DNA from: Pseudomonadota bacterium
GTDB lineage: Bacteria; Pseudomonadota; Gammaproteobacteria; Burkholderiales; SG8-39
DNA length: 64,000 bases
Direction of reading: 5' to 3'
Assembly (NCBI GenBank): GCA_040752005.1
Contig: JBFMFX010000002.1
Location: 64,824 to 128,823, forward strand
Shown here: piece by piece, positions 29,690-64,000 of the stretch
Numbering within the stretch: position 1 is the stretch's first letter
How the letters are laid out: each line of letters opens with the position of its first letter
The notes under the pieces: model-generated
Databases searched by the model: none
Told to the model about the DNA's origin: nothing
The model's input: only the letters and a program-made list of their open reading frames with translations
Program-made: the position numbers and the translations under genes

Positions 29690-30316
29690 GCGCGCCCGCG
29701 CCCAGGCCCAGAACCCGGGGCTCGCCGACGCGAGCACGATTCCGATCAGCACCACGGTGAGATTGTCCTTCACCGCCGGGATGTTGCCGAAGAAGTAGCC
29801 GGCGGAGCACAGCGACACCACCCACAGCAGCGCGCCGGCGACGCAGAACGCGAGGTAGCGCGCGTACGGCATCGTCGCCACGCCGGCGACGAACGGCACA
29901 TAAGTGCGCACGATCGGCACGAAGCGCGCGAGGAGGATCGTCTTGCCGCCGTGGCGCTCGTAGAAGTCGTGCGCGCGCGCCAGGTGCCGGGGGTTGAACC
30001 AGCGCGAGCGCTCGTAGTGAAACACCTTCGGGCCGGCCCAGCGGCCGACGAAGTAGTTGACGTTGTCGCCGCAGAGCGCGGCGATCGCCAGCGTCGCCAT
30101 CACCGCGCCGATGTCCATGCCGCCGGCGGCGGCGAGCGTGCCGGCGACGAAGAGCAGCGAATCCCCCGGCAGGAACGGGGTCACCACGAGACCCGTCTCG
30201 CAGAACACGATCGCGAACAGCAGCGCGTACACCCAGCGGCCGTGCTCGGCGACGAAGGCGGCGAGATTGCGGTCGAGGTGCACGGCGAAGTCCCACAGCG
30301 CCGCGATCCATTCCAT
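29669..30316 (-). CDS. DedA family membrane protein
   Basis: 215 aa with typical DedA motifs (FCETGLVVTPFLPGDSLLF, RFVPIVRTYVPFVAG). Confidence 0.88.
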   Translation of the reverse strand: MEWIAALWDFAVHLDRNLAAFVAEHGRWVYALLFAIVFCETGLVVTPFLPGDSLLFVAGTLAAAGGMDIGAVMATLAIAALCGDNVNYFVGRWAGPKVFHYERSRWFNPRHLARAHDFYERHGGKTILLARFVPIVRTYVPFVAGVATMPYARYLAFCVAGALLWVVSLCSAGYFFGNIPAVKDNLTVVLIGIVLASASPGFWAWARARSVQRHG

Positions 30317-30354
30317 CGGCCGATTGTAGCCGGGTGCGCCGATATAATCGTTCG

Positions 30355-38303: not shown

Positions 38304-39934
38304 CGGCGCCGCCCCGCCGCGACGTGCAGCGCGAGGTTCGCCGCGGTGCCCGCCACTCCGTAGTGCGGCAGCCGCCAGGTCGCGCGCCGCAGCTCCGGCC
38401 GCTCGGCGATCGCGGCCCGCAGATCTTCGGGCGTGAGGCCGGTCCGTTCGAGCACCTCCTCGAACTCGCGCTGCGCGCGCCGCTTCGCCTCCGTGAGAAT
38501 CATCTGGCAGCGCGAGAGCGCGTGCACCTCGGCGTCGCCCTTGATCTCGAGCGGCGCGTACAGCAGGTCCGGGTACTTGCCAAGCACCGCGGCCATCGCG
38601 CCGATGCTCATCGTGTTCGGCATGCACGAGTAGGGCGAGAGCTCGCAGGTCATGTGCGCCTTCCTGCCGTGGTAGGCCCAGAGCGCCTTGCCGATCAGCA
38701 TGTCGCCCTCGCCGCCGTTCAGGCGGCTGTGATAGAAGGGCGCAGCCAGGCGCCGCAGCGCGTCCTGCTCGGGCAGCTCGCGCGGAACCTCGCCCAAAGC
38801 CCGGCGCATGCGGTCGTAGGTCCAGCGCAGCAGCCGCTGGCCGAGGCGTACCGCGGCGAGCTTCGCACGCGCCTGGCGGTCAATGCCGATGTGGTCCTCG
38901 AAGTCCTGCCCGGCGAAGCGCAGCAGGTAGTCGAGCCAGATCGTGATCGCCGCCGGGTACACTTCCGCCCCCTCGGCCTCCAGCCAGCGGTGGATGTTGT
39001 AGTTGGGTTCGCCTTCCACCGTCTGCAGATAGAACTCGCCGGTGATCTTCACGACCGGCTTGACACGCGTGCGATCCACTTCGACCCGATCGTAGAGCGC
39101 CCTCACTTCGCGCATCGCGCGCACGAAGTAGCCGGTGGCGAGATGCCAGAGCGCCGCACTCCACTTGCCGCGGCGCACCGGCCGGCGGCGGAACGCTTCG
39201 TACAGCAGTTCCACCGCCGCGCGCGTGGCGCGCTCCGTTTCCCCCGCCTTCACTTCGAAGGGCCGCGTGCGGTATTCCATGTCCTGCACGACGTCGGTGA
39301 GCACGATCGCCCAAATCGCGCCGAGGATGAACGGCAGGTTGAGCTCGAGCCCACCGCCTTCGCGCGCGCCCTGGTCGAGGTTCGCCTGATCGAGCAGGAA
39401 CATGCGGAACGATTCCAGTCCGGTGTTCTTCAGCGCCAGCTCGTAGCTCTGGTGATACTGGCCGAAGCGGCAAGCACCGCAGGCGCCGGCGGTGACGTAG
39501 ATGAAATTCTTCGCCACCTCCTCGGGACTCGAGCGCTTCGCCTCGGCGCGCAGGAAATTGGCGAGATTGCCGGTGGTGAAGCTCGTCGGGCAGCACTGCC
39601 CGATGTCGGCCACCTCGCGCCCGGTGAGGAGGTCCTCGCGCGTGGCGACCGGCAGCACCCGCACGCGGTAGCCGAGGTTCTCCATCGCGCCCTGGATCAC
39701 GCGCTCGGCGCGCCAGTGCAGGCCGCCGAAGAGCACCGTGACCTTGTCGCGCTCCTCGCGCGTGAAGGGTCGCGGCCGGTACGCGCGGTAGTGCCCGCCC
39801 GCCTGCGAGGTGCGGTCCGGCGGCGGCACCGTTCGCACCTGCGCAGTCGGCGGAGCGCCGGCCGCGACGACGCGCACGTTCCGCAGCGAGCGGAAGGACA
39901 CGGACGGACGCGATTCGGACGTCGTCGGTTCCAT
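38300..39934 (-). CDS. 2-hydroxyacyl-CoA dehydratase-like / activase-related protein
   Basis: 544 aa from ATG 39934, with GQCCPTSF, TAGACGACRFGQY, ITGEFY and SPYSCMPN motifs. The stop overlaps the next start (ATGA). Confidence 0.7.
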   Translation of the reverse strand: MEPTTSESRPSVSFRSLRNVRVVAAGAPPTAQVRTVPPPDRTSQAGGHYRAYRPRPFTREERDKVTVLFGGLHWRAERVIQGAMENLGYRVRVLPVATREDLLTGREVADIGQCCPTSFTTGNLANFLRAEAKRSSPEEVAKNFIYVTAGACGACRFGQYHQSYELALKNTGLESFRMFLLDQANLDQGAREGGGLELNLPFILGAIWAIVLTDVVQDMEYRTRPFEVKAGETERATRAAVELLYEAFRRRPVRRGKWSAALWHLATGYFVRAMREVRALYDRVEVDRTRVKPVVKITGEFYLQTVEGEPNYNIHRWLEAEGAEVYPAAITIWLDYLLRFAGQDFEDHIGIDRQARAKLAAVRLGQRLLRWTYDRMRRALGEVPRELPEQDALRRLAAPFYHSRLNGGEGDMLIGKALWAYHGRKAHMTCELSPYSCMPNTMSIGAMAAVLGKYPDLLYAPLEIKGDAEVHALSRCQMILTEAKRRAQREFEEVLERTGLTPEDLRAAIAERPELRRATWRLPHYGVAGTAANLALHVAAGRRR

Positions 39935-51661: not shown

Positions 51662-53163
51662 GTCTCCTCGACGAAGACCTCGGAGCGCTTCTTGCGGATG
51701 TTGGGCGCGGCGATGATCGCGAGCAGGACGATCGCCGCCACCAGGAACGAAGCGCTGATCGGCTTCTGGAAGAAAACGAGCGGATCGCCGCGCGAAAGCA
51801 GCATCGCGCGCCTGAGGTTCTCCTCCATCAGGGGGCCGAGGATGAAGCCGAGGATCATTGGCGCCGGCTCGCACTCCAGCTTCACGCAGATGTAGCCGAG
51901 CAGACCGAAGAAGGCCATGATCAGCACGTCGAAGGGATTGTTCGACAGGCTGAAGACGCCGATCCCCATGAACAGCAGGATCGAGGGATAGAGCAGCCGG
52001 TAGGGCACCGTGAGCAGCTTGATCCACATGCCGATCAGGGGCAGGTTCAAGATCACGAGCATCAGGTTGCCGACCCACATCGAGGCGATCATCCCCCAGA
52101 ACAGCTGCGGGCGCTCGTTCATGACCTGGGGTCCGGGCGCGATGCCCTGGATCATCATCGCCCCGATCATCAGCGCCATCACCGCGTTGGAGGGAATGCC
52201 GAGGGTGAGCAGCGGGATGAACGAGGTCTGCGCGCCGGCGTTGTTGGCCGATTCGGGCGCGGCGACGCCCTCGATCGCGCCCTGGCCGAACTCGTGCGCG
52301 TACTTCGACACCTTCTTCTCCAGCGTGTAGGCGCCGAAGGAGGCGAGCAGCGCTCCGCCTCCGGGGAGGATGCCGAGCGCCGCGCCGAGGAAAGTGCCGC
52401 GCAACGCCGCCGGAATCAGGCGGCGAAAGTCCTCCTTGGTCGGCCAGAGATGGGTCACCTTCTTCGTGAACACCTCGCGCTGCCCGGTCTGCTCCAGGTT
52501 TGTCACGATCTCGGCGATGCCGAACATGCCCATTGCCACCACGACGAAGCCGATGCCGTCGGCGAGTTCCGAGATGCCGAAGGCGAAGCGAAGCACGCCG
52601 GAATTGACGTCGGTGCCGATCAGGCCGAGCAGCAGGCCGAGCACCACCATCGCGATCGCCTTGATGAGCGAGCCGTGCGCCAGCACCACCGCCGCGACCA
52701 GTCCCAGCACCATCAGCGAGAAATACTCCGCCGGGCCGAACTTGAGCGCCACCTCGGCAAGGGGCGGGGCGAACATCGCCACGATCAGCGTGGCCACGCA
52801 GCCGGCAAAGAAAGATACCAGCGCCGCAGTGGCGAGCGCGGGACCGGCGCGGCCCCGCCGCGCCATCTGGTAGCCGTCGATGCACGTCACCACCGAGGAG
52901 GACTCGCCCGGCAGGTTCACCAGGATCGCGGTGGTCGAGCCGCCGTACTGCGCGCCGTAATAGATCCCGGCGAGCATGATGAGCGCGCCGATCGGGTTCA
53001 GGTTGAAGGTGATCGGCAGCAGCATCGCGATGGTCGCCACCGGTCCGACGCCCGGTAGCACGCCGATCAGCGTGCCGAGCAGCACGCCGATCAGGCACAT
53101 CAGGATGTTGAAGGGCGAAAGCGCGACCGAGAAGCCGAGCAGCAGGTTGTTGAAAATCTCCAT
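51658..53163 (-). CDS. tctA: Tripartite tricarboxylate transporter large permease
   Basis: 501 aa, polytopic, with TctA family motifs (GVLPGVGP, YGGSTTAIL, NLPGE). Confidence 0.93.
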   Translation of the reverse strand: MEIFNNLLLGFSVALSPFNILMCLIGVLLGTLIGVLPGVGPVATIAMLLPITFNLNPIGALIMLAGIYYGAQYGGSTTAILVNLPGESSSVVTCIDGYQMARRGRAGPALATAALVSFFAGCVATLIVAMFAPPLAEVALKFGPAEYFSLMVLGLVAAVVLAHGSLIKAIAMVVLGLLLGLIGTDVNSGVLRFAFGISELADGIGFVVVAMGMFGIAEIVTNLEQTGQREVFTKKVTHLWPTKEDFRRLIPAALRGTFLGAALGILPGGGALLASFGAYTLEKKVSKYAHEFGQGAIEGVAAPESANNAGAQTSFIPLLTLGIPSNAVMALMIGAMMIQGIAPGPQVMNERPQLFWGMIASMWVGNLMLVILNLPLIGMWIKLLTVPYRLLYPSILLFMGIGVFSLSNNPFDVLIMAFFGLLGYICVKLECEPAPMILGFILGPLMEENLRRAMLLSRGDPLVFFQKPISASFLVAAIVLLAIIAAPNIRKKRSEVFVEET

Positions 53164-53173
53164 TGCCCCGCCC

Positions 53174-53836
53174 CTACTGCAGGAACTCCGGCCAGATCGG
53201 GAAGGGCAGCGTCAGCCCTTTGACGAACACCAGCACCGAAAAGACCGCGAGCACCACGGCGAGGATGGCGACTTCCTTCGTGCGGTACTCATGGCCGCCG
53301 AGCGCGGCGACGAAGACGAGCAGAATGGAGCTCAGCACCAGCCCGAGCGGCTTGAGCAGGTAGGCGAACACCATGCAGGAGGCGATGATGAGGATGAGCG
53401 GCTTCGCCTTCGGCCGAAAGGCGAACGCGAGCACCGCGAGCACCACCGAGGCGCCCATCATGCCCCAGTCGGCGTTGCCGAGGGCTCGCTTCGACGCCCA
53501 GCCAAGCACCGCATAAACCGCGATCCCGATCGCGAGATCCACGACGTTGAACGACATGCGGACCTCGGTCGCCGCCTTCGGCAGCTTCGACATGAAGCCG
53601 CGCAGGAAGACGACGAAACCGAGGACAGCGAGCAGGCCGCCGAGCAGCGTCGGGAAGTACGCCGGCCCCATGCGCACCGCGGTGCCCATCTGATAGCCGT
53701 ACTCGATCTTCCAGCCGGCCCGGCTGCCCAGCTCGACCAGAAACGCCGGCGGGCCGATCGCGATCAGCATGAACGCGAGGCCGAAGCCCATGAACATCAG
53801 GCCGGCCCAGAAATCCTTCTCGCTGTTGATGCGCAC
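53174..53836 (-). CDS. tctB: Tripartite tricarboxylate transporter small permease (long form)
   Basis: Hydrophobic protein upstream of tctA. GTG at 53836 is preceded by GGGAGGAAG. An alternative ATG lies at 53899. Confidence 0.75.
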   Translation of the reverse strand: MRINSEKDFWAGLMFMGFGLAFMLIAIGPPAFLVELGSRAGWKIEYGYQMGTAVRMGPAYFPTLLGGLLAVLGFVVFLRGFMSKLPKAATEVRMSFNVVDLAIGIAVYAVLGWASKRALGNADWGMMGASVVLAVLAFAFRPKAKPLILIIASCMVFAYLLKPLGLVLSSILLVFVAALGGHEYRTKEVAILAVVLAVFSVLVFVKGLTLPFPIWPEFLQ

Positions 53837-53927
53837 CCGCTTCCTCCCTCTTGCAAGCGTGTCTCCCCGGAAGGCGGGCAAGTGTAGCATGCGCTCCATG
53901 CCGGCCCGAGGGCGAAACGGCGCGGCG

Positions 53928-54554
53928 ATGCTGAGCCGCCTGCGCCGGGCGCAAATTGCGATCACAGCCGCCGCGCTCGCGCTGCTTTTCGCCGCCGCCT
54001 GCGCAGAAAAGCCGAAGCTTTCACGCTTGTCAGCGAACGCGGTGATCCTCGCCTTCGGCGACAGCCTCACCTACGGCACCGGAGCGGCGCAGGCCGAGAG
54101 TTATCCCGCGCAGCTCGCCGCGATCGTCGGGCGCACCGTCGCGCGTGCCGGCGTGCCCGGCGAGACGAGCGCCGCCGGCCTTGCGCGCCTTGCGCAGGCG
54201 CTGGAGGAACACCAGCCGCAGCTGCTCCTGCTCCTTCACGGCGGCAACGACTTTTTGCAACGGCTGCCGAAAGAGCGCACGGCGGCGAACGTGCGCGAGA
54301 TGGTTCGCCTCGCGCGCGGGCGCGGCGTCGAAGTGGTCCTGATCGGCACGCCCGAGCCGGGGCTCACCGTCACGCCGCCGGACTTCTACGCCGGCATCGC
54401 AAGAGAGTTCTCGATCCCCTACGATGGCTCGGTGATCGGCACGGTGCTGCGCGACCCGGGCCTGAAGTCCGACCCGGTGCACCCCAACGCGAAGGGCTAC
54501 CGCCTCATCGCCGAGCGCGTCGCCGCGCTACTGCGCGAATCCGGTGCGCTCTGA
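53928..54554 (+). CDS. SGNH/GDSL hydrolase (TesA-like arylesterase/thioesterase), probable lipoprotein
   Basis: Blocks FGDSLTYG, GGNDF and DPVHPN. Signal sequence ending in AAAC. The start could also be 53889. Confidence 0.85.
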   Translation: MLSRLRRAQIAITAAALALLFAAACAEKPKLSRLSANAVILAFGDSLTYGTGAAQAESYPAQLAAIVGRTVARAGVPGETSAAGLARLAQALEEHQPQLLLLLHGGNDFLQRLPKERTAANVREMVRLARGRGVEVVLIGTPEPGLTVTPPDFYAGIAREFSIPYDGSVIGTVLRDPGLKSDPVHPNAKGYRLIAERVAALLRESGAL

Positions 54555-54557
54555 GCG

Positions 54558-55289
54558 TCAGCGCCGGAGAAACCGCACGTCGCCGAAGTAGGACTCGACC
54601 GATTCGCCGGTGTTGTCGGTGTCGGCCGAGACGATCACGCCGGTCACCGCCGGCGCCGGCAGGCCGAACGCACGCCGGAAATCGTCGGCGAGGTCGCGCC
54701 TGCGCGCCACCCAGCGCCCGAGGAGCGCCGGGCCGCTGTCGGCGACCACCATGCGCACGCGGTCGGTATAGACGTTGGGCACGATCGTGCCCACCGCGGC
54801 GCGCGCGTCCCAGACGTAGCACAGCGCCGCGAGCGGCAGGCGCTCGCCCCAGAGCGCTCGCGCCAGCGCGATCCGCAGCCGCTCGCCGAGATCGAGCGCC
54901 GCCGCATCGAGATCGAAGGTGACGTACAGGCGCGCGGCGTAGTCGTCGCCTTCCTTTTTCGCGAGATCGCCCTTTTCCACCAGGCGCGTCACTTTCCACC
55001 GCCAGGCGAGCACCGGGTACGCCGCGGGGTCCACGCGCAGCGTGCGTGCAAGGCCGGAGGCCGCGGCGCGCGCGCGCACGCGCAAGACGGTGCCGCCCTC
55101 GTCCTCGACGAGCGCGAATTCGGCGGCAGGCGCGCCGCGGAAGGTGACCGGCTCCAGCCACGCCGGAAGGGGCGCACCCGCGGGCAACCGCGAAAAGGCC
55201 AGTGCCTCGACTTCCTCCGGCTGCGCACGCCCGGCGAGGGGCACGCATGCGGCCACGCCAGCAGCGAGGAAGGCGCGGCGGCCGATCAC
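54558..55289 (-). CDS. DUF3047 periplasmic protein
   Basis: Tat-like GRRAFLAAG signal, and YPVLAWRWKV and DDYAARLYVTFD motifs. The GTG start overlaps the upstream TGA. Confidence 0.75.
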   Translation of the reverse strand: MIGRRAFLAAGVAACVPLAGRAQPEEVEALAFSRLPAGAPLPAWLEPVTFRGAPAAEFALVEDEGGTVLRVRARAAASGLARTLRVDPAAYPVLAWRWKVTRLVEKGDLAKKEGDDYAARLYVTFDLDAAALDLGERLRIALARALWGERLPLAALCYVWDARAAVGTIVPNVYTDRVRMVVADSGPALLGRWVARRRDLADDFRRAFGLPAPAVTGVIVSADTDNTGESVESYFGDVRFLRR

Positions 55290-55909
55290 GGCAGGCGCAG
55301 CGCGCGCGGCGCGCGCCGCAGCCGCGCGAGATCCAACGCACGGTCCACGTCGCGCACTTGGGGCAGCTCGCGCCAGCGCAGGCCAAGCGCGCGCAGGCGG
55401 GCGCGCGTCTGCTCCAGCACCCGCGGCCCGCCCCAGGCGATGCCTTCGAACAGGAGCGGCGCCGACCGGCGCAGGCCGATGAGCGCGTAACCGCCGTCGG
55501 CGGCCGGAGCGATCACCGCGTCCATGCCGCCGGCGAGCGCCGCAAATGCTGCGCGCAGTTCGCGCGGCCCGAGCGCCGGACAGTCCGAGCCGACAAGTAC
55601 CGCCGCCGCGCGCCGCCCGAGCGCCTCGGCGAGCGCCGTGTGCATGCGCTGACCGAGGTCCCCTGCGCCTTGCGCGCGCAGGCGCGCGCGGTAGCGGCGC
55701 GCGAGGCGCCGAAGCAGCGGGTGCGCGCATGCGGGCGCGCAGTGCAGCTCGACCTCGGCGCAGCGCGCCCGGCGAGCGCTGGCGAGTGCGCGTTCGAGCA
55801 GCCGGACCTGAAGGCGCGCCGCTGCTGCCGCACCCAGCGCGCGCGCAAGGCGCGTCTTGACGCGCCCCGGGCGCGGCGCCTTGGCGAACACGATCAGGAT
55901 CCCTCTCAC
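55286..55909 (-). CDS. DUF2064 / TIGR04282-type nucleotidyl- or glycosyl-transferase-like protein
   Basis: ILIVFAKAPRPGRVKTRL N-terminus and GSDCP motif. The GTG start overlaps the upstream TGA (GGTGAG). Confidence 0.75.
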   Translation of the reverse strand: MRGILIVFAKAPRPGRVKTRLARALGAAAAARLQVRLLERALASARRARCAEVELHCAPACAHPLLRRLARRYRARLRAQGAGDLGQRMHTALAEALGRRAAAVLVGSDCPALGPRELRAAFAALAGGMDAVIAPAADGGYALIGLRRSAPLLFEGIAWGGPRVLEQTRARLRALGLRWRELPQVRDVDRALDLARLRRAPRALRLP

Positions 55910-56580
55910 CCGCGGGCGTAGCGGCGCGCCAGCTCCTCGGCCGGCACGCCGAAGGAGAACGCGAGCCGCAGCCGCCACATGAGCACGATCGTGCGCAGCA
56001 CGCCGTGGCGCTCCCAGCGCCGTCCGGAGGTGATCGCGCGCGCGCCGATGCAGGCCGGACGCGAGAGCGCCTTCATCCGGCGGCTGAAGACGATGTCCTC
56101 CATGAGCGCGAGATCCGGGTAGCCGCCGGCGCGCTCGAACGCCTCGCGCCGCACGAAGATCGCCTGGTCGCCGGTCGCGATGCCGGTGAGGCGCGAGCGC
56201 CAGTTCATGAAAGCCGCGACGACGCGAAGCAGCGGCGAACGGCCCTCGATCGCGACGTCGAAGCGGCCCCAGGCGCGCGCGGCGAGCGCCTCAGCGACCC
56301 GGCAATCGGCATCCTCCGGCAGCCGGGTGTCGGCATGCAGAAAGATCAGCCCCTCGCCGCGGGCGATCGCCGCCCCGGCGTTCATCTGCCGCGCGCGCCC
56401 GCGCGGGGCGGCGATCACGCGGTCGGCGAGCGGCGCGGCAAGCGCGGGCGTGCCGTCCTTCGATCCGCCGTCCACGACGATCACCTCGTGGCCACGCGCA
56501 CGCAGCGGCGCGAGCGCGGCGAGCGTCGCCGGCAGCGCCCTGGCCTCATCGAGCGCCGGAATGACGATCGAGAGCCTCAT
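55906..56580 (-). CDS. Family 2 glycosyltransferase (TIGR04283-like)
   Basis: LSIVIPALDEA...EVIVVDGGSKDGT...FLHADT. 224 aa from ATG 56580. Confidence 0.82.
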   Translation of the reverse strand: MRLSIVIPALDEARALPATLAALAPLRARGHEVIVVDGGSKDGTPALAAPLADRVIAAPRGRARQMNAGAAIARGEGLIFLHADTRLPEDADCRVAEALAARAWGRFDVAIEGRSPLLRVVAAFMNWRSRLTGIATGDQAIFVRREAFERAGGYPDLALMEDIVFSRRMKALSRPACIGARAITSGRRWERHGVLRTIVLMWRLRLAFSFGVPAEELARRYARG

Positions 56581-56593
56581 CGCGATCCCCGGC

Positions 56594-58831
56594 TCAGCGC
56601 TGTTCCGGACCATACGCCGGCCGGCGGTCGGCGGATGCGGCGGCAAGGCGCGCGAGCACCGCCGCGAGCGAGCCCTCGCCGCGCGACCAGTCATGAAACG
56701 CGGCAAGGAGCGCCTGCTGGCCGCGCGTCACGCGCGCGCGCCGCCACGCGCCGGCGGCGTACTTGTTCGCCTCGGCGAACGTCGGATAGACGTGGATCGT
56801 GCGCAGGATCCCTTCCAAGCCGATGCCGTGGCGCATGGCGAGAACGAACTCGGCCATCAGGTCGCCCGCATGCGCGCCGACGATCGTCGCGCCGAGAATG
56901 CGATCGGTGCCCGGTGCGGTCAGCACCTTGACGAAGCCGTGCGCCTCACCGTCCGCGATCGCGCGATCGAGCTCCTCCAGGCTGTAGCGCGCCACCTCGT
57001 ACGCAACGCCCTTTGCGGCCGCCTCGGTTTCGTTCAGGCCGACGCGCGCCACCTCCGGATCGGTGAAGATGGCCCACGGGATCACCGAGTAATCGGCGCG
57101 GAACCTGCGAAAGCGCCCGAAGAGCGCGTTCACCGTCGCGTACCACGCCTGGTGCGAGGCGGTGTGGGTGAACTGCCAGGGGCCGGTGACGTCGCCGCAG
57201 GCGTAGATGTTGGGATAGTTCGTGCGCAGGTACTCGTCGGTTTCGATCGTGCGCGCCGGCGTGAGCGCAATGCCCAGCTCCTCCAGCCCGTAGCCGGCGG
57301 TGTTCGCGACTCGCCCGAGCGCGCACACGAGCAGATCGAAAGGCACGTGCGCCACGCCGCCGGAGTGCTCGGCGACGAGCCGCTTCTCCCCCGCCTCGAC
57401 GCGGAACTCCTGCGCCCGGTGGCCGGCGAGCACGCGGATGCCTTCGGCGCCGAAGCGCTCGGCCACCAGGACCGAAACCTCCGGGTCCTCGTGCGGAAGG
57501 ATCCGCTCGCGCATCTCCACCTGCGTCACCTCGGCGCCCAGGCGCGCGAGGCACTGCGCCAGCTCGCAGCCGATCGGCCCGCCGCCCAGCACCAGAACGC
57601 GCCGGGGCAGCGCGCGCAGATCCCAGATCGTGTCGGAGGTGACGTAGCCGGTCGCCTCGATCCCCGGGATCGGCGGCACGAGCGGCCGCGCGCCCGCCGC
57701 GATCACGATCGCCTTCGTGGTGAGCCGCACGCTCGAACCGTCGGGCTTCCTCACCTCGACTTCCCAGGGCGTGGCGATGCGCGCCTCGCCGGTGACGCAC
57801 TCGACGCCGAGGGCGCTGTAGCGCTCGCGCGAGTCGTGCGGCGCCACCGTGCGTACCACGCGCGCGACGCGCTCCATGATCTCGCCGAAATCCAGCTCGG
57901 CGCTCGCCGCGCGCAGGCCGAAATCGCGATGGCGCCGGATCTGCGCCACCAGCCGCGCCGAGCGCACGAGCGCCTTGGAGGGCACGCAGCCGGTGTTCAG
58001 GCAGTCCCCGCCCATGCGGTCGCGCTCGACAAGCGTCACCTTCGCCTTCACCGCGGCCGCGATATAGGCGGCGACCAGGCCCGCCGAGCCCGCGCCGATG
58101 ACCACCAGGTTGCGCTCGAAGCGCCGCGGTCGCAGATGCGCCCAGCGCGCGTACACCCGATGCGCCTTCGCCGCGCCGACCGCTTTCCTCGCAAGCAGCG
58201 GAAAGACGCCGAGCAGCACGAACGAGCCGAGCAGCCCGGGCGAGAGGATTGCGGCGGGCGAGTCAATCGCCGCGAGCTGTGTCCCGGCGTTCACGTACAC
58301 CACGGTGCCGGCGAGCATGCCGAGCTGGCTGACCCAGTAGAACGTCCAGGCGCGCATCGGCGTCAGGCCCATGACCAGGTTGATGGCGAAGAACGGGATC
58401 GCCGGGATCAGCCGCAGCGTGAAGAGGTAGAAGGCGCCGTCGCGCGCGATGCCGTCGTTCACCGCGCGCAGGTGCCGGCCGAACCGCTCCTGCACCCAGT
58501 CGCGCAGCACGAACCGGCTGGCGAGAAAGGCGAGCGTCGCGCCGACCGACGAGGCGAACGAGACGATCACCGTGCCCCAGGCGAGCCCGAAGATCGCCCC
58601 GCCGGCGAGCGTCATCGGCACCGCGCCCGGCAGGGACAGACCGGTCACCAGCACGTAGAGCAGGAAATAGCCGCCGACCGTCGCCAGCCGATGCGATTCG
58701 TAAAAGGCGCGCGCGGCGTCGGCCTGCGCCTTCAGGTTTGCGAGCGTGAGCGCCTCATGCCCGCCGAAGGCGAAGAACGCGCCGGCGAGCGTGGCGAGAA
58801 CCGCGAGCACGGCAAGACGGGACCGGGTCAT
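56594..58831 (-). CDS. Fusion protein: N-terminal DedA/TVP38-TMEM64 membrane domain plus C-terminal FAD/NAD(P) pyridine-nucleotide-disulfide oxidoreductase
   Basis: About 230 hydrophobic N-terminal residues (RLIPAIPFFAINLVMG). These are followed by the dinucleotide fold VVIGAGSAG, the redox-active GGDCLNTGCVPSK motif, a second GGGPIGCE fold, and a dimerisation domain. Confidence 0.85.
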   Translation of the reverse strand: MTRSRLAVLAVLATLAGAFFAFGGHEALTLANLKAQADAARAFYESHRLATVGGYFLLYVLVTGLSLPGAVPMTLAGGAIFGLAWGTVIVSFASSVGATLAFLASRFVLRDWVQERFGRHLRAVNDGIARDGAFYLFTLRLIPAIPFFAINLVMGLTPMRAWTFYWVSQLGMLAGTVVYVNAGTQLAAIDSPAAILSPGLLGSFVLLGVFPLLARKAVGAAKAHRVYARWAHLRPRRFERNLVVIGAGSAGLVAAYIAAAVKAKVTLVERDRMGGDCLNTGCVPSKALVRSARLVAQIRRHRDFGLRAASAELDFGEIMERVARVVRTVAPHDSRERYSALGVECVTGEARIATPWEVEVRKPDGSSVRLTTKAIVIAAGARPLVPPIPGIEATGYVTSDTIWDLRALPRRVLVLGGGPIGCELAQCLARLGAEVTQVEMRERILPHEDPEVSVLVAERFGAEGIRVLAGHRAQEFRVEAGEKRLVAEHSGGVAHVPFDLLVCALGRVANTAGYGLEELGIALTPARTIETDEYLRTNYPNIYACGDVTGPWQFTHTASHQAWYATVNALFGRFRRFRADYSVIPWAIFTDPEVARVGLNETEAAAKGVAYEVARYSLEELDRAIADGEAHGFVKVLTAPGTDRILGATIVGAHAGDLMAEFVLAMRHGIGLEGILRTIHVYPTFAEANKYAAGAWRRARVTRGQQALLAAFHDWSRGEGSLAAVLARLAAASADRRPAYGPEQR

Positions 58832-58870
58832 GGGCGGCCGGCGTCCGGGTCGCGCACCGCTGACCGCGGC

Positions 58871-59413
58871 TTACAGCAGGTTGGCCGCGCGGTAGGACTG
58901 CTCGTCCATCAGCGTGAGCAGGCGGCTGCTCGTCGCGCGCAGCCGCTGCGACAGCATCAGCACCAGCTCCATCAGGATTTTCGCCCCGAGCATCGGCTGC
59001 TCGACGATGATGCGCGCGAGATTCTCGCGGTCGAGCACCGCCAGCAGCGTCGGCTCGGCGGCGATGCAGGTGGCGAAGCGCGGCTCGCCGTCGATCATGG
59101 ACATCTCGCCGAGCGTCTTGCCGGCCTCGACCACCGCGATCAACTGCGGCGTGTCCCAGCGGTCGCGCTTCCTCACCTCGACCCGCCCCTCGACCAGCAT
59201 CAGCATGAAATCGCCGTCGTCGCCCTCGCGGATGATCTCGACGCCCGGCGGCGCGCGATAGACGTTCATGAAATGGGCGAGCAGCCGCACCTCGGCGGGC
59301 GAAAAATTCTCCAGCAGGCTGCATTTCGGGATGAGCGCGTGGATCTGCGAGGCAAACCGGGTCGCGTCGCCGAGATACTCCAGATGCGCAAGCTGCCGGG
59401 GCCGTTCGCTCAT
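58871..59413 (-). CDS. Stand-alone cyclic-nucleotide-binding domain protein
   Basis: The cNMP-binding cassette GEMSMIDGEPRFATCIA is preceded by a beta-roll (IIREGDDGDFMLMLVEGRVEV). I see no DNA-binding domain. Confidence 0.8.
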   Translation of the reverse strand: MSERPRQLAHLEYLGDATRFASQIHALIPKCSLLENFSPAEVRLLAHFMNVYRAPPGVEIIREGDDGDFMLMLVEGRVEVRKRDRWDTPQLIAVVEAGKTLGEMSMIDGEPRFATCIAAEPTLLAVLDRENLARIIVEQPMLGAKILMELVLMLSQRLRATSSRLLTLMDEQSYRAANLL

Positions 59414-59437
59414 TGCGGGCTGTCTCCGGCGGCGATT

Positions 59438-60313
59438 CTAGCCGATCAGCCAGAGCACGGTCCCGAGCCAGCCGGCCACCGCGATCATGAGAACCGCGTC
59501 GGAGAGCAGCTCTTCGGCCGGATCGCCGCCCCCGCCGCGGAAGTGCAGCCGGTAAAGATAGCGAAAGGTGCCGAGCAGCACCCACGGCAGCGTGAGGATC
59601 AGGTCGCCGGTGCCGTGCAGCGCCGCGGTCTCCTCGTCGAGCGTGTACAGAGCGTAAGTCGCCACGGTCGCCGCGGCGCATGCGAAGGCGGCACGGTCGA
59701 GAAACGCCGTGCTGTAGGCCGCCAGGACCGCGCGGTGTTCGCCCGCGTCCTGGGCGAGCTGCGCGATCTCGGCGCGGCGCTTCGCGAAGCCGAGAAAGAG
59801 CGTCAGCAGGAAGCCGCACGCGAGCAGCCACTTCGACGGCTCGATGCCGATGCCGGCGGTGCCGGCGAGCAGCCGCAGCATGAAGCCGGCGGCGATCGCG
59901 AACACGTCGAGCACCGGAATCTCCTTCAGCCCGAGCGAGTAGGCGACGTTGAGCGCAAGGTACGCGGCGAGCATCGCGGCCGCACCCGCGCCCGCCCACG
60001 CGGCGGCGGCGGCGAGGCCGGCTGCGGCGCTCGCCGCGGCGAGCGCGTAGGCGGCGCCGACCGGCACCGCGCCGCGGGCGACCGGTCGGCGGCGCTTGTC
60101 GGGATGCAGGCGGTCGCGCGGTGCGTCGCGGCAGTCGTTGAACGCATAGACCGCGCCCGCGCCGAGGCAGAACGACGCGGTCGCCGCGACCGCCGACGCG
60201 ACGAGCTGCGCATCGCCCCAGGCGTGACCGAAGACAAGGCCCGTCAGCACGAAGGCGTTTTTCGGCCACTGGCGCGGCCGCAGCAGCTCGAGGTACGCGA
60301 GCAGCCGCGTCAT
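59438..60313 (-). CDS. UbiA-family prenyl-phosphate phosphoribosyltransferase-like protein (DPPR-synthase-like)
   Basis: LLRPRQWPKNAFV N-terminus and Asp-rich motif FNDCRDAPRDRLHPDK. Polytopic. The ATG overlaps the upstream TGA (ATGA). Confidence 0.8.
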   Translation of the reverse strand: MTRLLAYLELLRPRQWPKNAFVLTGLVFGHAWGDAQLVASAVAATASFCLGAGAVYAFNDCRDAPRDRLHPDKRRRPVARGAVPVGAAYALAAASAAAGLAAAAAWAGAGAAAMLAAYLALNVAYSLGLKEIPVLDVFAIAAGFMLRLLAGTAGIGIEPSKWLLACGFLLTLFLGFAKRRAEIAQLAQDAGEHRAVLAAYSTAFLDRAAFACAAATVATYALYTLDEETAALHGTGDLILTLPWVLLGTFRYLYRLHFRGGGGDPAEELLSDAVLMIAVAGWLGTVLWLIG

Positions 60314-61824
60314 CGCGCGAAGTAGCGCTCGAAGAAGTAACAGCCCCGCACCGGAAGCCAGGCGGGAATGCGGTAGTAGCGCCGACGCACCTCTTCGAGC
60401 ACGCCACCGCGATAGGCGGCGTAGTCGAAGCCGCGCCCCAGCACCGCGTAGAAGCGCACTCCGCGCAGCTCGATCGGCCGCACCTCGAGCGACCGGAAAT
60501 AGGGCCGGTAGTCCTGTTCCGTGGGCGGTTCGCGCCGCAGCACCGCCAGATCGCGGCCGTCATAGCGCCGCCAGTCGGTAAGGATATCGTCGTGCCGCGC
60601 GTGCGAGGAGCCGGTGCCGAATACCGGCACGTCGCCTCCGGTGTGCCAGGCGAGCAGCGCGGCGGTCGAGTAGCTGTCGGCGGCAAGCACGCTGCCGGCC
60701 GGCGCCGCCCGCGCGGCGAGTGTTCCCGCCTCGGAGAGGAGCACCAGCCCTCGGTACAGGCGCGTACCGCTCCAGGTTTCGAGCGGCAGCGCGGCGAGCG
60801 CCGCCGCCGCCGCGACGTGCAGCGCGGCGAATGCGGCGAAGAAGCGCGCCGCGCGCGCGAGCGCCGCCGGCTCCAGCGCGAGCGCAAGGCTTGCCGCGAG
60901 CGCGGGCAGAAAGCCGAGCAGCCAGTGCAGGCCGATGCGCTTGACCGGCGAGAGCGCAGCAAAAACGGCCAGAGGAACGAGCCACGCCAGAAACAGCGCG
61001 CGGCCGGCCGGCTGTGCCCACGCCGCCGCAAGCCGCCCGCGGCCGCGCCAGGCGAACCACAGGAGCGGCGCCGCGAGGTAGGCGAGCGCGGCCGCGTACA
61101 GCGCCGGCGTCGCGAGCGACCAGCCGCCGTCGTCCTGATGGCGGTTGATCGCGTTGAACATCACGTTCGCCCAGCAGGCGTTCGCGTTCCACCACAGATT
61201 GGCGAGCACCGCCGGCGCCGCGCCCGTGAGCACCAGCCCGAGCGCGCCCCAGCGGCGCGCGCTCACCGCCCAGGCGAGGTACGCGAGCCCGAGCAGCACC
61301 GCGAGGTATTTGGAGAGGAACGCGAGCCCGAGCAGCACGCCGGCGGCGAAGAAGAGAAAACCGGCACCCCGCCCTTCGTCCTCCGCTCGCGCTGCGCCGA
61401 GGGCGAATGCCGTCGCCGAGGCGGCCGCGAACACCATCAGGGGCGAATCGGTGGTGACGAGCACGTTCCAGACGTTCATCGGCGCAAGCAGCACGCACAG
61501 TGCGGCGAGGCTTGCGGTGTCCGCGTCGCGACACAGCTCGCGTGCGAGCGCCGCCCGCACGATGAGCGCCGCGGCGAGCGGCGCAAGCGTCGCCGGTAGC
61601 CTCAGGACCCACTGCGCGTCCGACACCGACAACAGCGGCGCGAGCAGCCAGCCGATCATCGGCGGATGGTCGTAGTAGCCCGCCGCCGCGTGCCGGCCCC
61701 AGAGCGCGAAATAGGCCTCGTCGGCGGTGATCGGCGCTGCCGCCGACAGCCACAACCGGAAGACGAGCGTTGCGGCCGCCGCGACCCAGAACCAGTGCCG
61801 CGGCGCGAGCGCCGCGCCGCTCAA
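60310..61824 (-). CDS. GT-C fold glycosyltransferase (family 39 / ArnT-PMT-like)
   Basis: ITADEAYFALWGRHAAAGYYDHPPM motif with many TM helices. The TTG at 61824 overlaps the aroG TGA. The tracked ORF extends to 62106 through the aroG 3' end in another frame. Confidence 0.8.
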   Translation of the reverse strand: MSGAALAPRHWFWVAAAATLVFRLWLSAAAPITADEAYFALWGRHAAAGYYDHPPMIGWLLAPLLSVSDAQWVLRLPATLAPLAAALIVRAALARELCRDADTASLAALCVLLAPMNVWNVLVTTDSPLMVFAAASATAFALGAARAEDEGRGAGFLFFAAGVLLGLAFLSKYLAVLLGLAYLAWAVSARRWGALGLVLTGAAPAVLANLWWNANACWANVMFNAINRHQDDGGWSLATPALYAAALAYLAAPLLWFAWRGRGRLAAAWAQPAGRALFLAWLVPLAVFAALSPVKRIGLHWLLGFLPALAASLALALEPAALARAARFFAAFAALHVAAAAALAALPLETWSGTRLYRGLVLLSEAGTLAARAAPAGSVLAADSYSTAALLAWHTGGDVPVFGTGSSHARHDDILTDWRRYDGRDLAVLRREPPTEQDYRPYFRSLEVRPIELRGVRFYAVLGRGFDYAAYRGGVLEEVRRRYYRIPAWLPVRGCYFFERYFAR

Positions 61825-63134
61825 GCGGTGCTCGCGCGCCGCAGCGCCTTCGCCGGGCGCGAGCCTCGCGCCGCCGGCCGCCCGCGCCCTTCGTCCTTGC
61901 GCGCTCTCCGGCGCGCGCGACTTGCGCCCTTCCCAGCCTCCTGGCGCGCGCTGCTTGCGCCCTTCCCGGTCTCCTGGCGCGCGCTGCTGGCGCCCTTTCC
62001 GACCTCCGGGTGCGCGCGGCCCATGCCCGTCTTTACCTCCCGGCGCGCACGTACGGCATCGGCCAGCACTTGCAGCACCGCGACCGAGTCCTCCCAGCCC
62101 AGGCACGCATCGGTGATGCTCTGACCGAACACCAGCGGCCGGCCCGGCTCCAGATCCTGACGGCCCTCGACGAGGTTGGACTCGATCATTGCGCCGATGA
62201 TGCAGTGCTCGCCGGAGGCGATCTGCGCCGCCACCTCGCGCGCAACGTCAATCTGGCGCCGAAACTGCTTGGCCGAGTTGGCGTGCGAGCAGTCGATCAT
62301 CAGGCGACAGGGAAGCCGCGACTTCGCCAGCTCCTCGCAGGCGGCCCTGACGCTCGCGGCGTCGTAGTTGGGCGTTCGTCCGCCGCGCAGGATGATGTGG
62401 CAGTCCTCGTTGCCGCGCGTCTCGACGATCGCCACCTGCCCGCTCTTGTGCACCGAGAGAAAATGGTGCTTCTGGCGCGCGGCGAGGATCGCGTCCACTG
62501 CGATGCGGACGTTTCCTTCGGTGCCGTTCTTGAACCCGACGGGCGCCGAGAGCCCCGAGGCAAGCTCGCGGTGCACCTGGCTCTCGGTGGTGCGGGCGCC
62601 GATCGCCCCCCAGGCGACGAGATCGCCGATGTACTGCGGCGAGATGACGTCGAGGAACTCGCAGCCGGCGGGCACCCCCATCTGGTTGATGCGCAGCAGC
62701 AGGTCGCGCGCGATCCGCAGCCCCTCGTTGATGCGGAAGCTGCCGTTCAGATACGGGTCGTTGATGAGCCCCTTCCATCCTACGGTGGTCCGCGGCTTCT
62801 CGAAGTACACCCGCATCACCACCTCCAGTTCCCCGGCATGGCGCGCGCGCTCGACGGCGAGGCGCTCGGCGTAGGCGAGCGCCGCCTGCGGCTCGTGGAT
62901 CGAGCACGGACCGATCACCACCAGCAGCCGGTCGGAAGCCCCGTGCACGATCTCGCGGATGCGGCGCCGGGTGTCGCCGACCAGGCGTTCGACCGCGGTG
63001 CCCTGGATCGGAAAAAAGCGGATCAGGTGCTCCGGCGACGGCAGCGGAACGATGTTCTCGATGCGCTCGTCGTCGGTGAGCGAGGTCCGATCTGCGGGAA
63101 TCGGCCCGAGGAAGCTGTCGGCGGCAGTGGTCAT
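61821..63134 (-). CDS. aroG: 3-deoxy-D-arabino-heptulosonate-7-phosphate synthase, class I alpha, with a 72-aa C-terminal extension
   Basis: Collinear with AroG-type enzymes (GPCSIHE, KPRTTVGWKGL, GARTTESQVHRELASGLS, IDCSHANS, ITDACLGWEDS...ADAVRARR). CAGGAG Shine-Dalgarno 6 nt before the ATG at 63134. Confidence 0.93.
   Translation of the reverse strand: MTTAADSFLGPIPADRTSLTDDERIENIVPLPSPEHLIRFFPIQGTAVERLVGDTRRRIREIVHGASDRLLVVIGPCSIHEPQAALAYAERLAVERARHAGELEVVMRVYFEKPRTTVGWKGLINDPYLNGSFRINEGLRIARDLLLRINQMGVPAGCEFLDVISPQYIGDLVAWGAIGARTTESQVHRELASGLSAPVGFKNGTEGNVRIAVDAILAARQKHHFLSVHKSGQVAIVETRGNEDCHIILRGGRTPNYDAASVRAACEELAKSRLPCRLMIDCSHANSAKQFRRQIDVAREVAAQIASGEHCIIGAMIESNLVEGRQDLEPGRPLVFGQSITDACLGWEDSVAVLQVLADAVRARREVKTGMGRAHPEVGKGASSARQETGKGASSARQEAGKGASRARRRARKDEGRGRPAARGSRPAKALRRASTA
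61921..62019. repeat. 3 x 33-bp tandem repeat inside the aroG 3' extension
   Basis: The units are 61921-61953, 61954-61986 (2 mismatches against unit 1) and 61987-62019 (more diverged). A degenerate partial unit lies at about 61896-61920. In the aroG frame the units encode EVGKGASSARQ / ETGKGASSARQ / EAGKGASRARR. Confidence 0.9.
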
Positions 63135-63146
63135 TGCGGTCTCCTG

Positions 63147-63184
63147 AAAAACAAAAACCGCCAGGCATCTCTGCGCTGGCGGTT
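63147..63184 (-). terminator. Intrinsic terminator of the aroG leader (attenuator)
   Basis: The minus strand reads AACCGCCAG cgcagagatgc CTGGCGGTT followed by TTTGTTTTT. This is a 9-bp stem with an 11-nt loop, and it abuts the aroG Shine-Dalgarno. Confidence 0.75.
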
Positions 63185-63209
63185 CTGCGGGGTCCGGTTC
63201 GGCGTGCGG

Positions 63210-63275
63210 CTATCCGCTCCCCTCCGCCAGCAGGCGGTGGAAGTAGAAGAAGAAGCCGTAGAACCAGCGCGTCAT
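63210..63275 (-). CDS. Aromatic-rich leader peptide MTRWFYGFFFYFHRLLAEGSG
   Basis: A 21-codon ORF on the aroG strand, 25 nt upstream of the terminator stem. Codons 4-12 are W F Y G F F F Y F. Confidence 0.7.
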   Translation of the reverse strand: MTRWFYGFFFYFHRLLAEGSG

Positions 63276-63496
63276 GGCCGCGATTCAAGCACGGAAACGC
63301 CGGCCTGTCCACTTCGGCCGCCCCCCCCAGGGGCGCCGGGACGGGCAGCCGCCCCGCCGCCGGACGTCGCCGCGGCCTCGCGCACCCCGAGGCGCCGCGG
63401 CCGGCAGCGCACGCGTCGCGCGGAATTTGCGGGGGTGGAGGCGGCGTGCTAATTTTTTTGCGTCCTCGGACGATAGTAGAGGTAAAGGAGTTCGAC

Positions 63497-64000
63497 ATGC
63501 CGGCCGGTACGCTCGTACCCGCGCGCACCCCCGCCATCCCTGTGGCGGGCTTCAAGGACGTCTACGACGTCGCCGCCGTGGAGAAGGCGCTTGCCGAGCT
63601 GCCGCAGAGCGCGAACGAGGCGCTGCGCGCGCTCTACGAGAAGATGCTGCGCCTGGGCGGGCAACGGTTCACCGTCAAGCCCTCGGCGCTGCCCGAGATG
63701 GACAGCCTGTTCGAGGACCTGCCGAACTTCTCCGAGGTGCTGGAGGAGATCCGGCGCCAGCTCGCGCTGTGCATTGACTCGAGCGACCCGGTCGAGCTGC
63801 CGCCGATCCTGCTGCTCGGCGAACCCGGCATCGGCAAGACGCACTTCGCGCAACGCGTGGCCGAGCTGATCGGCACCGGTTGCGGCTTCGTGCCGATGAG
63901 CTCGCTCACCGCCGGCTGGATCCTGTCGGGGGCGTCCTCGCAGTGGAAGAACGCAAAACCGGGCAAGGTGTTCGAGACGTTCCTGAACGGCGAGTACGCC
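63497..64000 (+). CDS. AAA+ ATPase, Lon-like nucleotide-binding module (3' end outside the window)
   Basis: ATG preceded by AAAGGAG. Walker A LLLGEPGIGKTHFA. The downstream segment SSLTAGWILSGASSQWKNAKPGKVFE resembles the Lon ATPase region. The frame is open to the window end. Confidence 0.6.
   Translation, partial: MPAGTLVPARTPAIPVAGFKDVYDVAAVEKALAELPQSANEALRALYEKMLRLGGQRFTVKPSALPEMDSLFEDLPNFSEVLEEIRRQLALCIDSSDPVELPPILLLGEPGIGKTHFAQRVAELIGTGCGFVPMSSLTAGWILSGASSQWKNAKPGKVFETFLNGEYA

Follow-up and report, generated by a model that had tools for sequence, protein, structure and literature searches.

A widely conserved composite gene cluster behind aroG and a predicted attenuator in uncultured Betaproteobacteria

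Systems for the extracytoplasmic addition of pentofuranoses, built on a polyprenyl-phosphate 5-phosphoribosyltransferase (PPPRS) and a glycosyltransferase of the GT-C fold, were characterised in 2024, and the characterised examples carry a 5-phosphatase and a flippase in cis (PMC11127046). In Mycobacterium tuberculosis, the methylthioxylose (MTX) that caps lipoarabinomannan derives from methylthioadenosine and is transferred from a decaprenyl-phosphate carrier by a GT-C enzyme (PMC11127046); MtxS (Rv0539) makes the lipid donor and MtxT (Rv0541c) transfers the sugar. A third point of reference is ArsS, which adenosylates DMAs(III) to 5'-deoxy-5'-dimethylarsinoyl-adenosine, an analogue of methylthioadenosine (PMC13598754). 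Here we compare these systems with an eight-gene cluster headed by aroG, found at positions 54558-63134 of a 64-kb stretch of DNA (hereafter the window; positions 64,824 to 128,823 of contig JBFMFX010000002.1, assembly GCA_040752005.1) from an uncultured soil or water betaproteobacterium of the Burkholderiales.

The cluster proved genuine and is conserved in many genomes. It is also composite, and an existing paradigm accounts for half of it. The reading that we favour, and hold to be somewhat more probable than all others together, is that of a composite operon in which an attenuator-controlled, housekeeping-type aroG is followed by two evolutionarily separable accessory modules. Module A, a GT-C gene and a UbiA-type gene, is predicted to encode a stripped-down lipid-linked pentofuranose glycosylation system of a known kind, whose donor is probably ribofuranose and not arabinofuranose. 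Module B, the last four genes, is a reduced copy of the cassette that surrounds ArsS elsewhere, minus ArsS itself, a phosphoesterase-like gene and a DUF547 gene. We infer that the two modules are functionally independent. The eight genes, in order of transcription, are:

61821-63134, minus strand: aroG, class I-alpha 3-deoxy-D-arabino-heptulosonate-7-phosphate (DAHP) synthase, 437 amino acids (DAHP_synth_1, 1.4e-92; TIGR00034, 524 bits)
60310-61824, minus strand: ArnT-like glycosyltransferase of the GT-C fold, 504 amino acids from a TTG start (Pfam PMT_2, 6e-17)
59438-60313, minus strand: predicted PPPRS of the UbiA superfamily, 291 amino acids (NF008977)
58871-59413, minus strand: stand-alone CAP-type cyclic nucleotide monophosphate (cNMP)-binding-domain protein, 180 amino acids (Pfam cNMP_binding, 2.3e-17)
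56594-58831, minus strand: fusion of a DedA/VTT domain (about residues 1-225) to a class I flavoprotein disulfide reductase (VTT_dom, Pyr_redox_2, Pyr_redox, Pyr_redox_dim)
55906-56580, minus strand: family 2 glycosyltransferase (GT2, GT-A fold) of TIGR04283, 224 amino acids (272.8 bits against a cut-off of 182)
55286-55909, minus strand: DUF2064 protein (Pfam DUF2064, TIGR04282), nucleotidyltransferase-like and CofC-related, 207 amino acids from a GTG at 55909
54558-55289, minus strand: DUF3047 protein with a twin-arginine signal, 243 amino acids, predicted periplasmic (Pfam DUF3047, 4.5e-69)

The separation into modules comes from a survey of 160 related loci, 80 of them anchored on the UbiA gene and 80 on the DedA-reductase fusion. 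For the UbiA survey we took one genome per GTDB species and located homologues of the window's proteins by tblastn; all 80 loci came from uncultured Betaproteobacteria or Burkholderiales-type metagenome-assembled genomes. The DedA-reductase survey was a metagenome scan, in which loci were counted as informative when they offered at least 3.5 kb upstream (40 loci) or at least 3 kb downstream (48 loci). Around UbiA, aroG was found upstream in 64 of 66 informative loci and GT-C beside it in 69 of 71, while DedA-reductase, GT2 and DUF2064 were present in 34 of 50 and DUF3047 in eight of 50. The remaining 16 of these 50 loci have no module B gene; they read aroG–GT-C–UbiA(–cNMP) followed directly by unrelated or convergent genes, and most are Rhodocyclales-like, with UbiA identities of 51-60%. 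Even where module B is present, about 21 of the 34 loci have no adjacent ArsS. The preliminary description of this DNA, drawn up from its letters alone, had treated the seven genes downstream of aroG as one module or pathway. Pfam and NCBIfam searches returned every family that it had assigned, but its one-module reading is not supported, as co-conservation of the whole set, which it had itself named as a test, fails: in 16 of 50 loci GT-C–UbiA–cNMP stands alone, and the last four genes stand without GT-C and UbiA in most of the DedA-anchored loci.

Anchoring on the DedA-reductase fusion gave the complementary picture. Its upstream flank holds ArsS in 24 of 40 loci and UbiA with GT-C in only three of 40; its downstream flank (n = 48) holds DUF547 in 24, GT2 in 29, DUF2064 in 31 and DUF3047 in 17. 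Complete cassettes most often read ArsS–MPE-like–DedA-reductase–DUF547–GT2–DUF2064–DUF3047, where MPE-like denotes the phosphoesterase-like gene, and this cassette is usually found without aroG, GT-C or UbiA. In relatives of the window, ArsS (TIGR04167, 456 bits) and the MPE-like gene stand between cNMP and the DedA fusion, DUF547 stands between the fusion and GT2, and a TauE gene, missing from the window, stands between aroG and GT-C. Among the aroG-containing loci of the DedA survey, five have ArsS plus module B only, three have module B only, two have both modules and two have both modules plus ArsS, such that presence of GT-C/UbiA and presence of ArsS vary independently. Pfam-annotated contigs with one and the same chromosomal frame confirm the modularity. 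Locus L085 reads aroG–TauE–cNMP–ArsS–x–DedA-reductase–GT2–DUF2064, with neither GT-C nor UbiA. L086 and L087 read aroG–TauE–DedA-reductase–DUF547–GT2–DUF2064, with remnants of GT-C and cNMP that abut each other: at 9494-9936 a C-terminal GT-C fragment (amino acids 402-495, 64-66% identity) is joined to a C-terminal cNMP fragment (amino acids 125-180, 80-82%). This scar, lying between TauE and an intact DedA-reductase gene, indicates that module A was lost there while DedA-reductase–DUF547–GT2–DUF2064 persisted. The close relative L084, on the other hand, has all eight genes of the window, and its reductase fusion, the sole product compared, is 90% identical.

Within module A, the UbiA protein carries a UbiA domain only, scores 241.9 bits against a cut-off of 234 in NF008977 ('decaprenyl-phosphate phosphoribosyltransferase') and contains the motifs LRPRQWPKN and NDcrDaprD. 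A full-length match was obtained with the structure of mycobacterial Rv3806c (8j8j; E 5e-32, residues 7-286 against 17-295). The Rv3806c residues that contact Mg2+, pyrophosphate, ribose and the 5-phosphate have been listed, and its phosphoribose sites are absent from prenyl-transferring UbiA enzymes (PMC10994848). Nine of 11 Rv3806c contacts with phosphoribosyl pyrophosphate (PRPP) and Mg2+ are identical in the window (R22, K28, Y70, N73, D77, K87, R90, Y138 and K143 in Rv3806c numbering) and the other two are conservative (Q135N, Y157F). The corresponding residues here are R12, K18, Y56, N59, D63, K73, R76, N122, Y125, K130 and F144, invariant or at least 90% conserved among 17 homologues (alignment A1). 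The protein is thus a predicted polyprenyl-phosphate 5-phosphoribosyltransferase of the Rv3806c/PPPRS branch. These residues also speak to another explanation of its place behind a DAHP synthase gene, namely that it prenylates an aromatic acceptor derived from shikimate. Membership of the UbiA superfamily, the label 4-hydroxybenzoate polyprenyltransferase given to homologues at JGI and the persistent linkage to aroG would all suit such a role. Against it stand the conserved Rv3806c-type phosphoribose and pyrophosphate residues, the match to an NCBIfam phosphoribosyltransferase equivalog with the heme O synthase and prenyltransferase models far under their cut-offs, the constant pairing with GT-C, and the DprE1/DprE2 genes that adjoin the most distant UbiA relatives. 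We rejected the aromatic role on active-site residues and gene context, and consider it scarcely credible.

The GT-C protein matched no NCBIfam family, ArnT models included, and a sequence search of the PDB gave no match at E < 0.01. Its 504-amino-acid start is also used by gene callers in three metagenomes and in L084, and the loop-1 motif DEAYF (D35-E36) is invariant. An AlphaFold2 model (pLDDT 86, pTM 0.88) compared with the PDB by Foldseek matched ArnT best (5f15/5ezm; E 3e-8, TM 0.61/0.57, full length over about 540 residues) and fitted it better than AglB, PglB, Pmt4, AftA or EmbB, the AftA/EmbB-type folds giving TM 0.40-0.46. As in ArnT, the predicted GT-C(A) fold carries a small periplasmic domain at its C-terminus; identity in the structural alignment is 16-17%.

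The pair belongs with lipid-linked pentofuranose glycosylation, as genes beside its distant relatives show. In the L064 cluster a GT-C gene (45% identity) is followed by DprE1-like (NF053785, 455 bits, full length) and DprE2-like (NF053786, 179 bits) genes and by UbiA (53%); L078 has the same epimerase genes beside UbiA, and these two loci are the two exceptions to the aroG linkage. L068, a short contig that is uninformative for aroG, has a DprE2-like gene beside UbiA. No DprE1 or DprE2 homologue was found in the window or within 10 kb on either side in any aroG-linked locus, which implies a ribofuranosyl donor that is not epimerised. In the proposed scheme, PPPRS would move 5-phosphoribose from PRPP to undecaprenyl phosphate at the cytoplasmic face, the product would be dephosphorylated and flipped by functions encoded outside module A, and the ArnT-like GT-C would transfer the ribofuranosyl group at the periplasmic face to an envelope acceptor, with lipid A, lipopolysaccharide (LPS) or another glycan as candidates. 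The preliminary description had proposed a polyprenyl-phosphate-dependent periplasmic glycosylation device for GT-C and UbiA, which our results support as a prediction; it had also stated that no characterised pathway has this composition, which has to be qualified for the GT-C/UbiA pair (PMC11127046, and the GT-C–DprE1–DprE2–UbiA set of L064).

Among characterised systems, the closest is that of Citrobacter youngae O1/O2, ORF15/ORF14/ORF12 (Kelly et al. 2024, PMC11127046), which shares a PRPP-using UbiA-type synthase paired with a GT-C predicted to act in the periplasm, likewise occurs in a Gram-negative host and belongs to a kind in which the epimerase is optional. In contrast, the operon has no fused HAD phosphatase domain, no separate phosphatase and no MATE or SMR flippase; its GT-C is PMT_2/ArnT-like and lacks a carbohydrate-binding module, and the genes sit in an amino-acid biosynthesis operon instead of an O-antigen locus. 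The mycobacterial decaprenyl-phospho-arabinose pathway (Rv3806c, Rv3807c, DprE1/DprE2, Emb/Aft) and the D-Araf modification of Pseudomonas aeruginosa pilin share the UbiA enzyme, aligned at full length with its PRPP/Mg2+ site kept, and the L064 relative has the complete gene set; the window, however, has no DprE1/DprE2, the operon encodes no PAP2-type phosphatase, and the GT-C is nearer ArnT (TM 0.61 against 0.40-0.46). With the ArnT/ArnC route to aminoarabinose on lipid A, whose transferase is the closest fold, the system shares the logic of a polyprenyl-phosphate-sugar donor and a periplasmic acceptor. Here, by contrast, the donor would come from a PRPP-dependent UbiA enzyme and not from an ArnC-type GT2, and ArnA, ArnB and ArnD are absent. 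Homologues of module A occur in at least 70 species-level betaproteobacterial genomes. The PPPRS/GT-C strategy of pentofuranosylation would thereby extend to a large uncultured clade, in a minimal form that lacks an epimerase, a phosphatase and a flippase, with an ArnT-like transferase and in an operon controlled by amino-acid starvation. Should lipid A or LPS prove to be the acceptor, this would amount to a new and unusually regulated modification of the envelope.

Module B is recognised by its GT2/DUF2064 pair, which the preliminary description had noted as arsenosugar-associated. This proved sound: the two genes are adjacent, as in the cassette of TIGR04167, TIGR04282, TIGR04283 and a phosphoesterase, and both products score above their curated cut-offs (197.1 bits against 134 for TIGR04282). 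A profile search of the PDB with the DUF2064 protein found 3cgx, a 'putative nucleotide-diphospho-sugar transferase' (9e-31). In the same kind of search only the generic N-terminal GT-A core of the GT2 aligned, with DPMS, ArnC and GtrB as well as the soluble GpgS. The DUF3047 protein, whose start was taken from the junction reading, begins VIGRRAFLAAG..., a twin-arginine-type signal, and a PDB profile search found no relative of it. In the fusion, the reductase domain is intact, with a CLNTGC redox pair and an HxYPTxxE motif, and C277, C282, H680 and E687 are invariant (alignment A6). ArsS gave no match in the 64-kb window when a relative's ArsS (the 456-bit TIGR04167 match) was used as tblastn query, and the phosphoesterase-like gene and DUF547 are absent from the window as well; the phosphoesterase-like protein of relatives matches Metallophos_2 only weakly (E 0.003). 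Literature searches on DUF2064, DUF3047, TIGR04282 and TIGR04283 brought up no paper that appeared to deal with function, with DUF2064 and TIGR04283 unmentioned, and those for DedA–mercuric-reductase fusions and for arsenosugar glycosyltransferases yielded nothing useful. The chemistry of module B is probably redox plus nucleotidyl or glycosyl transfer on a substrate derived from, or related to, 5'-deoxyadenosine.

Our survey redefines the ArsS 'arsenosugar' cassette in that the DedA–flavoprotein-reductase fusion, DUF547, DUF3047 and, in other lineages, a second Pyr_redox_2 flavoprotein become regular members; it also offers concrete candidates for the steps after ArsS. At the same time, persistence of the GT2/DUF2064 pair without adjacent ArsS in many genomes questions the NCBI product name. 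Four ArsS-cassette loci were checked further, and each has the second Pyr_redox_2 gene after DUF3047 and neither GT-C nor ArsM. This extra flavoprotein of about 380 amino acids lies at 15064-16194 in L102, 13083-14225 in L113, 15350-16411 in L114 and 11012-12160 in L107; in L107 a sodium:solute-symporter-like gene separates ArsS from the phosphoesterase-like gene.

Could module B in the window be non-functional and in decay, the leftover of a cassette that has lost ArsS, the phosphoesterase-like gene and DUF547? Three cassette members of the relatives are indeed absent, and G+C is unusually high (0.75-0.78) over 55000-56500. Yet all four open reading frames (ORFs) are intact and above curated family cut-offs, the reductase keeps its catalytic Cys pair and its His and Glu, L084 has the same four genes, and module B without adjacent ArsS recurs in about 21 of 34 UbiA-anchored loci. 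We regard decay as very unlikely. As an observation on composition, the G+C-rich region covers DUF3047, DUF2064 and GT2, and its flanks are at about 0.68.

A more serious competitor, the view of the preliminary description sharpened by the MTX precedent, joins the two modules into one lipid-carrier pathway. A 5-substituted ribose, derived from the product of ArsS, from methylthioadenosine or from 5'-deoxyadenosine, would be nucleotide-activated by DUF2064 and then passed by GT2 to polyprenyl phosphate. PPPRS would contribute the ribosyl lipid that bears no substituent, the DedA domain would flip the carrier or recycle it, and the single GT-C would place these ribofuranosides on an envelope acceptor. 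In the window and in L084 the seven genes lie close together, many of them overlapping at their stop and start codons, 34 of the 50 informative loci in the UbiA survey have the two modules side by side, and the GT2 profile matches include the polyprenyl-phosphate enzymes DPMS, ArnC and GtrB. Arsenosugars, moreover, are ribofuranosides, and the likeness of the ArsS product to methylthioadenosine together with the roles of MtxS and MtxT supplies a model. As a precedent, it offers an adenosine-derived 5-substituted pentofuranose, a GT2 that loads polyprenyl phosphate and a GT-C that transfers, whereas the canonical ArsS cassettes examined have no GT-C of any kind and a second flavoprotein reductase instead. 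The homology of TIGR04283 and TIGR04282 to Rv0539 and Rv0540 is putative, Rv0540 being presumably a nucleotidyltransferase and DUF2064 member. Further against a single pathway, modules A and B occur independently, GT-C/UbiA and ArsS vary independently among the aroG-containing loci, the GT2 matches are confined to the generic core shared with soluble GpgS, and ArsS is missing from the window. Overall, we judge one integrated pathway, chemically attractive as it is, to be unlikely.

A bolder version, to which we give a little less credence still, holds that DUF2064 and GT2 of the ArsS cassette in general make polyprenyl-phosphate-linked 5-substituted ribofuranoses from 5'-substituted 5'-deoxyadenosines, and that PPPRS and GT-C join in an (arseno)ribofuranoside decoration of the envelope. 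The substrate would be dimethylarsinoyl-adenosine where ArsS is present and methylthioadenosine or 5'-deoxyadenosine where it is not, along a route parallel to MTX capping; PPPRS would provide plain polyprenyl-phosphate-ribose, GT-C would decorate lipid A or another envelope acceptor, and expression would be gated by starvation for aromatic amino acids. If true, this would be the first mechanism for bacterial arsenosugar assembly after ArsS, plus a new kind of envelope decoration.

Several observations weigh against our preferred reading of a composite operon with independent modules. No 5-phosphatase or flippase is encoded in cis with module A, so that the transferred group could be ribose-5-phosphate or the scheme may be incomplete. 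We found no phosphoribose 5-phosphatase (a HAD domain, or a HAD or PAP2 protein) in the operon or in its four-gene form, and the operon likewise has no gene for a MATE or SMR flippase; the DedA domain and, in relatives, TauE are no more than candidate flippase substitutes, and the four-gene form has neither. In 34 species-level genomes the two modules stand side by side with their genes closely spaced, and stop and start codons often overlap. Given that both plausibly involve ribofuranosyl chemistry, this adjacency makes a functional link possible. DedA proteins have reportedly been implicated in polyprenyl-phosphate recycling (2023 work on UptA/DedA), a role that may fit a fusion serving module A. 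The persistent aroG linkage, which spans UbiA identities of 51-79%, is unaccounted for by the model. Finally, promoters may lie inside coding sequence, as a scan for sigma-70 consensus sites, which found none, is insensitive at 70% G+C.

The last point bears on whether the eight genes form one transcription unit. All eight ORFs run head-to-tail with gaps of at most 39 nt, and rereading every junction from the sequence upheld the layout of the preliminary description, including its four overlapping junctions. The stop of aroG (61821-61823) and the TTG start of GT-C at 61824 overlap in TTGA; GT-C and UbiA overlap in ATGA (60310-60313); GT2 and DUF2064, and DUF2064 and DUF3047, each overlap in GTGA, with starts at 55909 and 55289. 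UbiA and cNMP are 24 nt apart with a GGAGA ribosome-binding site between them, cNMP and DedA-reductase are 39 nt apart, and DedA-reductase and GT2 are separated by 13 nt, with the GT2 ATG at 56580. In relatives the packing is equally tight, with gaps mostly of -10 to +50 nt. The claim that no terminator separates the genes was also borne out: a consensus scan gave four terminator-like sites against 5.1 +/- 2.4 in shuffled sequence, none convincing on the minus strand inside the operon, and no T-runs or terminator-like sites were seen between its genes. From the overlapping codons, the small conserved gaps and the lack of any excess of terminator-like sites, co-transcription of all eight genes from the aroG promoter is likely. 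Tight packing in an operon, we caution, is no proof of one pathway.

It is improbable, in our view, that the arrangement is conserved synteny only, in which the downstream genes use their own promoters inside upstream coding sequence and the attenuator has no effect on them. In favour of this, a chromosomal frame recA–recX–alaS–(AAA)–aroG ... GDSL–tctBAC holds differing cassette combinations by lineage and looks like a hot spot of insertion and deletion, and the Rhodocyclales-like set retains aroG–GT-C–UbiA–cNMP yet has no leader peptide. It is opposed by the four overlapping junctions in the window, by gaps of -10 to +50 nt maintained across dozens of species, by the lack of T-runs or terminator-like sites between genes, and by an aroG–GT-C adjacency kept down to about 51% UbiA identity, a divergence at which the order of unlinked genes is normally lost. 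The preliminary description had found coupling to a DAHP synthase gene unexpected; the coupling stands, and it recurs in 64 of 66 informative loci of the neighbourhood survey.

The proposed operon starts with an attenuator, made up of two features upstream of aroG:

63210-63275, minus strand: leader-peptide ORF, MTRWFYGFFFYFHRLLAEGSG followed by a stop codon (read from sequence)
63147-63184, minus strand: intrinsic terminator, a GC-rich hairpin AACCGCCAGCG-CAGAGAUG-CCUGGCGGUU followed by UUUUUGUUUUU (from RNA folding)

Residues 4-12 of the leader peptide hold five Phe, two Tyr and one Trp. The 3' half of its ORF encodes attenuator region 1 (CCGCC, 63233-63237), which falls within the final leader codons, and region 2 (GCUGGCGG, 63224-63231). 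Region 3 (63175-63182) is the 5' arm of the terminator and can alternatively pair with region 2: when region 4, the 3' terminator arm, is left out, the nascent transcript folds into a 2:3 antiterminator helix of GCUGGCGG with CCGCCAGC. The 2:3 and 3:4 duplexes have computed energies of -18.7 and -20.4 kcal/mol, respectively. About 47-49 of 63 related loci have a homologous leader (consensus M.RWFYGFFFYFPRPLAEGNG) in front of aroG, and a T-run at the matching distance is conserved as well. These features make up a genuine Phe/Tyr leader-peptide attenuator of the classical arrangement, as first proposed, and aroG is predicted to be under its control. The pheA, pheST and trp attenuators of enterobacteria share the short ORF with a run of Phe/Tyr/Trp codons, the mutually exclusive 1:2, 2:3 and 3:4 helices and the terminator with its U-run; here, in contrast, the device governs a DAHP synthase gene and potentially seven non-biosynthetic genes in addition, and it belongs to no Rfam family. 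In E. coli, DAHP synthase genes are repressor-controlled. An Rfam scan of 53000-64000 (E <= 1) gave one sub-threshold chance match and no known leader family. In loci L004-L056 the second half of the leader, the C-terminal PRPLAEGNG, is conserved to the same degree as the Phe/Tyr run. This conservation probably reflects RNA structure, since that half encodes regions 1 and 2. The leader peptide is absent from Rhodocyclales-like loci (aroG identity 60-68%).

The aroG/GT-C overlap exists only because aroG extends about 71 codons beyond its catalytic domain through a tandem repeat. The catalytic domain extends to about residue 366 (near 62037), and beyond it lies a Lys/Arg/Ala-rich tail of 71 amino acids (61821-62036), part of which is encoded by a 33-bp repeat in 3.5 copies (61906-62020, GKGASSARQE units). 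Close relatives without TauE have AroG tails of about 31-45 amino acids with the same ...AKALRRAS end overlapping the GT-C start. As tail length varies among relatives, the tail is probably translated former spacer. That tail and repeat are a remnant of TauE was considered and dropped as unsupported; close relatives lacking TauE carry similar basic tails.

Between the two modules, the cNMP-binding protein has a phosphate-binding cassette, GEMSMIDGEPRFAT, in which the Arg is kept and a Phe stands where cAMP-binding domains have Ser/Thr. In 66 of 75 informative loci its gene comes after UbiA; where GT-C and UbiA are missing, it stands directly behind aroG or TauE. It tracks aroG and not GT-C/UbiA or ArsS, with aroG–cNMP or aroG–TauE–cNMP in L090, L121, L147, L153, L162 and L085.

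At its 3' end the cluster meets a convergent gene, which is conserved in this position in relatives:

53928-54554 (start approximate), plus strand: GDSL/SGNH lipase (Pfam Lipase_GDSL_2)

The stops of this gene and of DUF3047 are 3 nt apart (54554-54560), which leaves no space for a terminator between the transcription units. A Pfam search of 29 further ORFs of the window found no ArsM, DprE1/DprE2, nucleotide-sugar or flippase gene for the pathway, in agreement with the earlier statement that DprE1/DprE2, ArsS/ArsM and nucleotide-sugar genes are lacking, on which homology searches concur; these ORFs encode housekeeping functions (IspH, IleRS, MurJ, arginine genes, LpxK, H+-PPase) plus one stand-alone DedA. 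The latter, a DedA/VTT-domain gene at 29672-30397 on the minus strand, is a second candidate polyprenyl-phosphate recycler, separate from the fusion. Elsewhere in the window (34967-38879, minus strand), and unrelated to the cluster, a large BcrAD/BadFG-type ATPase (CoA-enzyme activase) gene lies beside a DUF2229 gene and several TctC paralogues.

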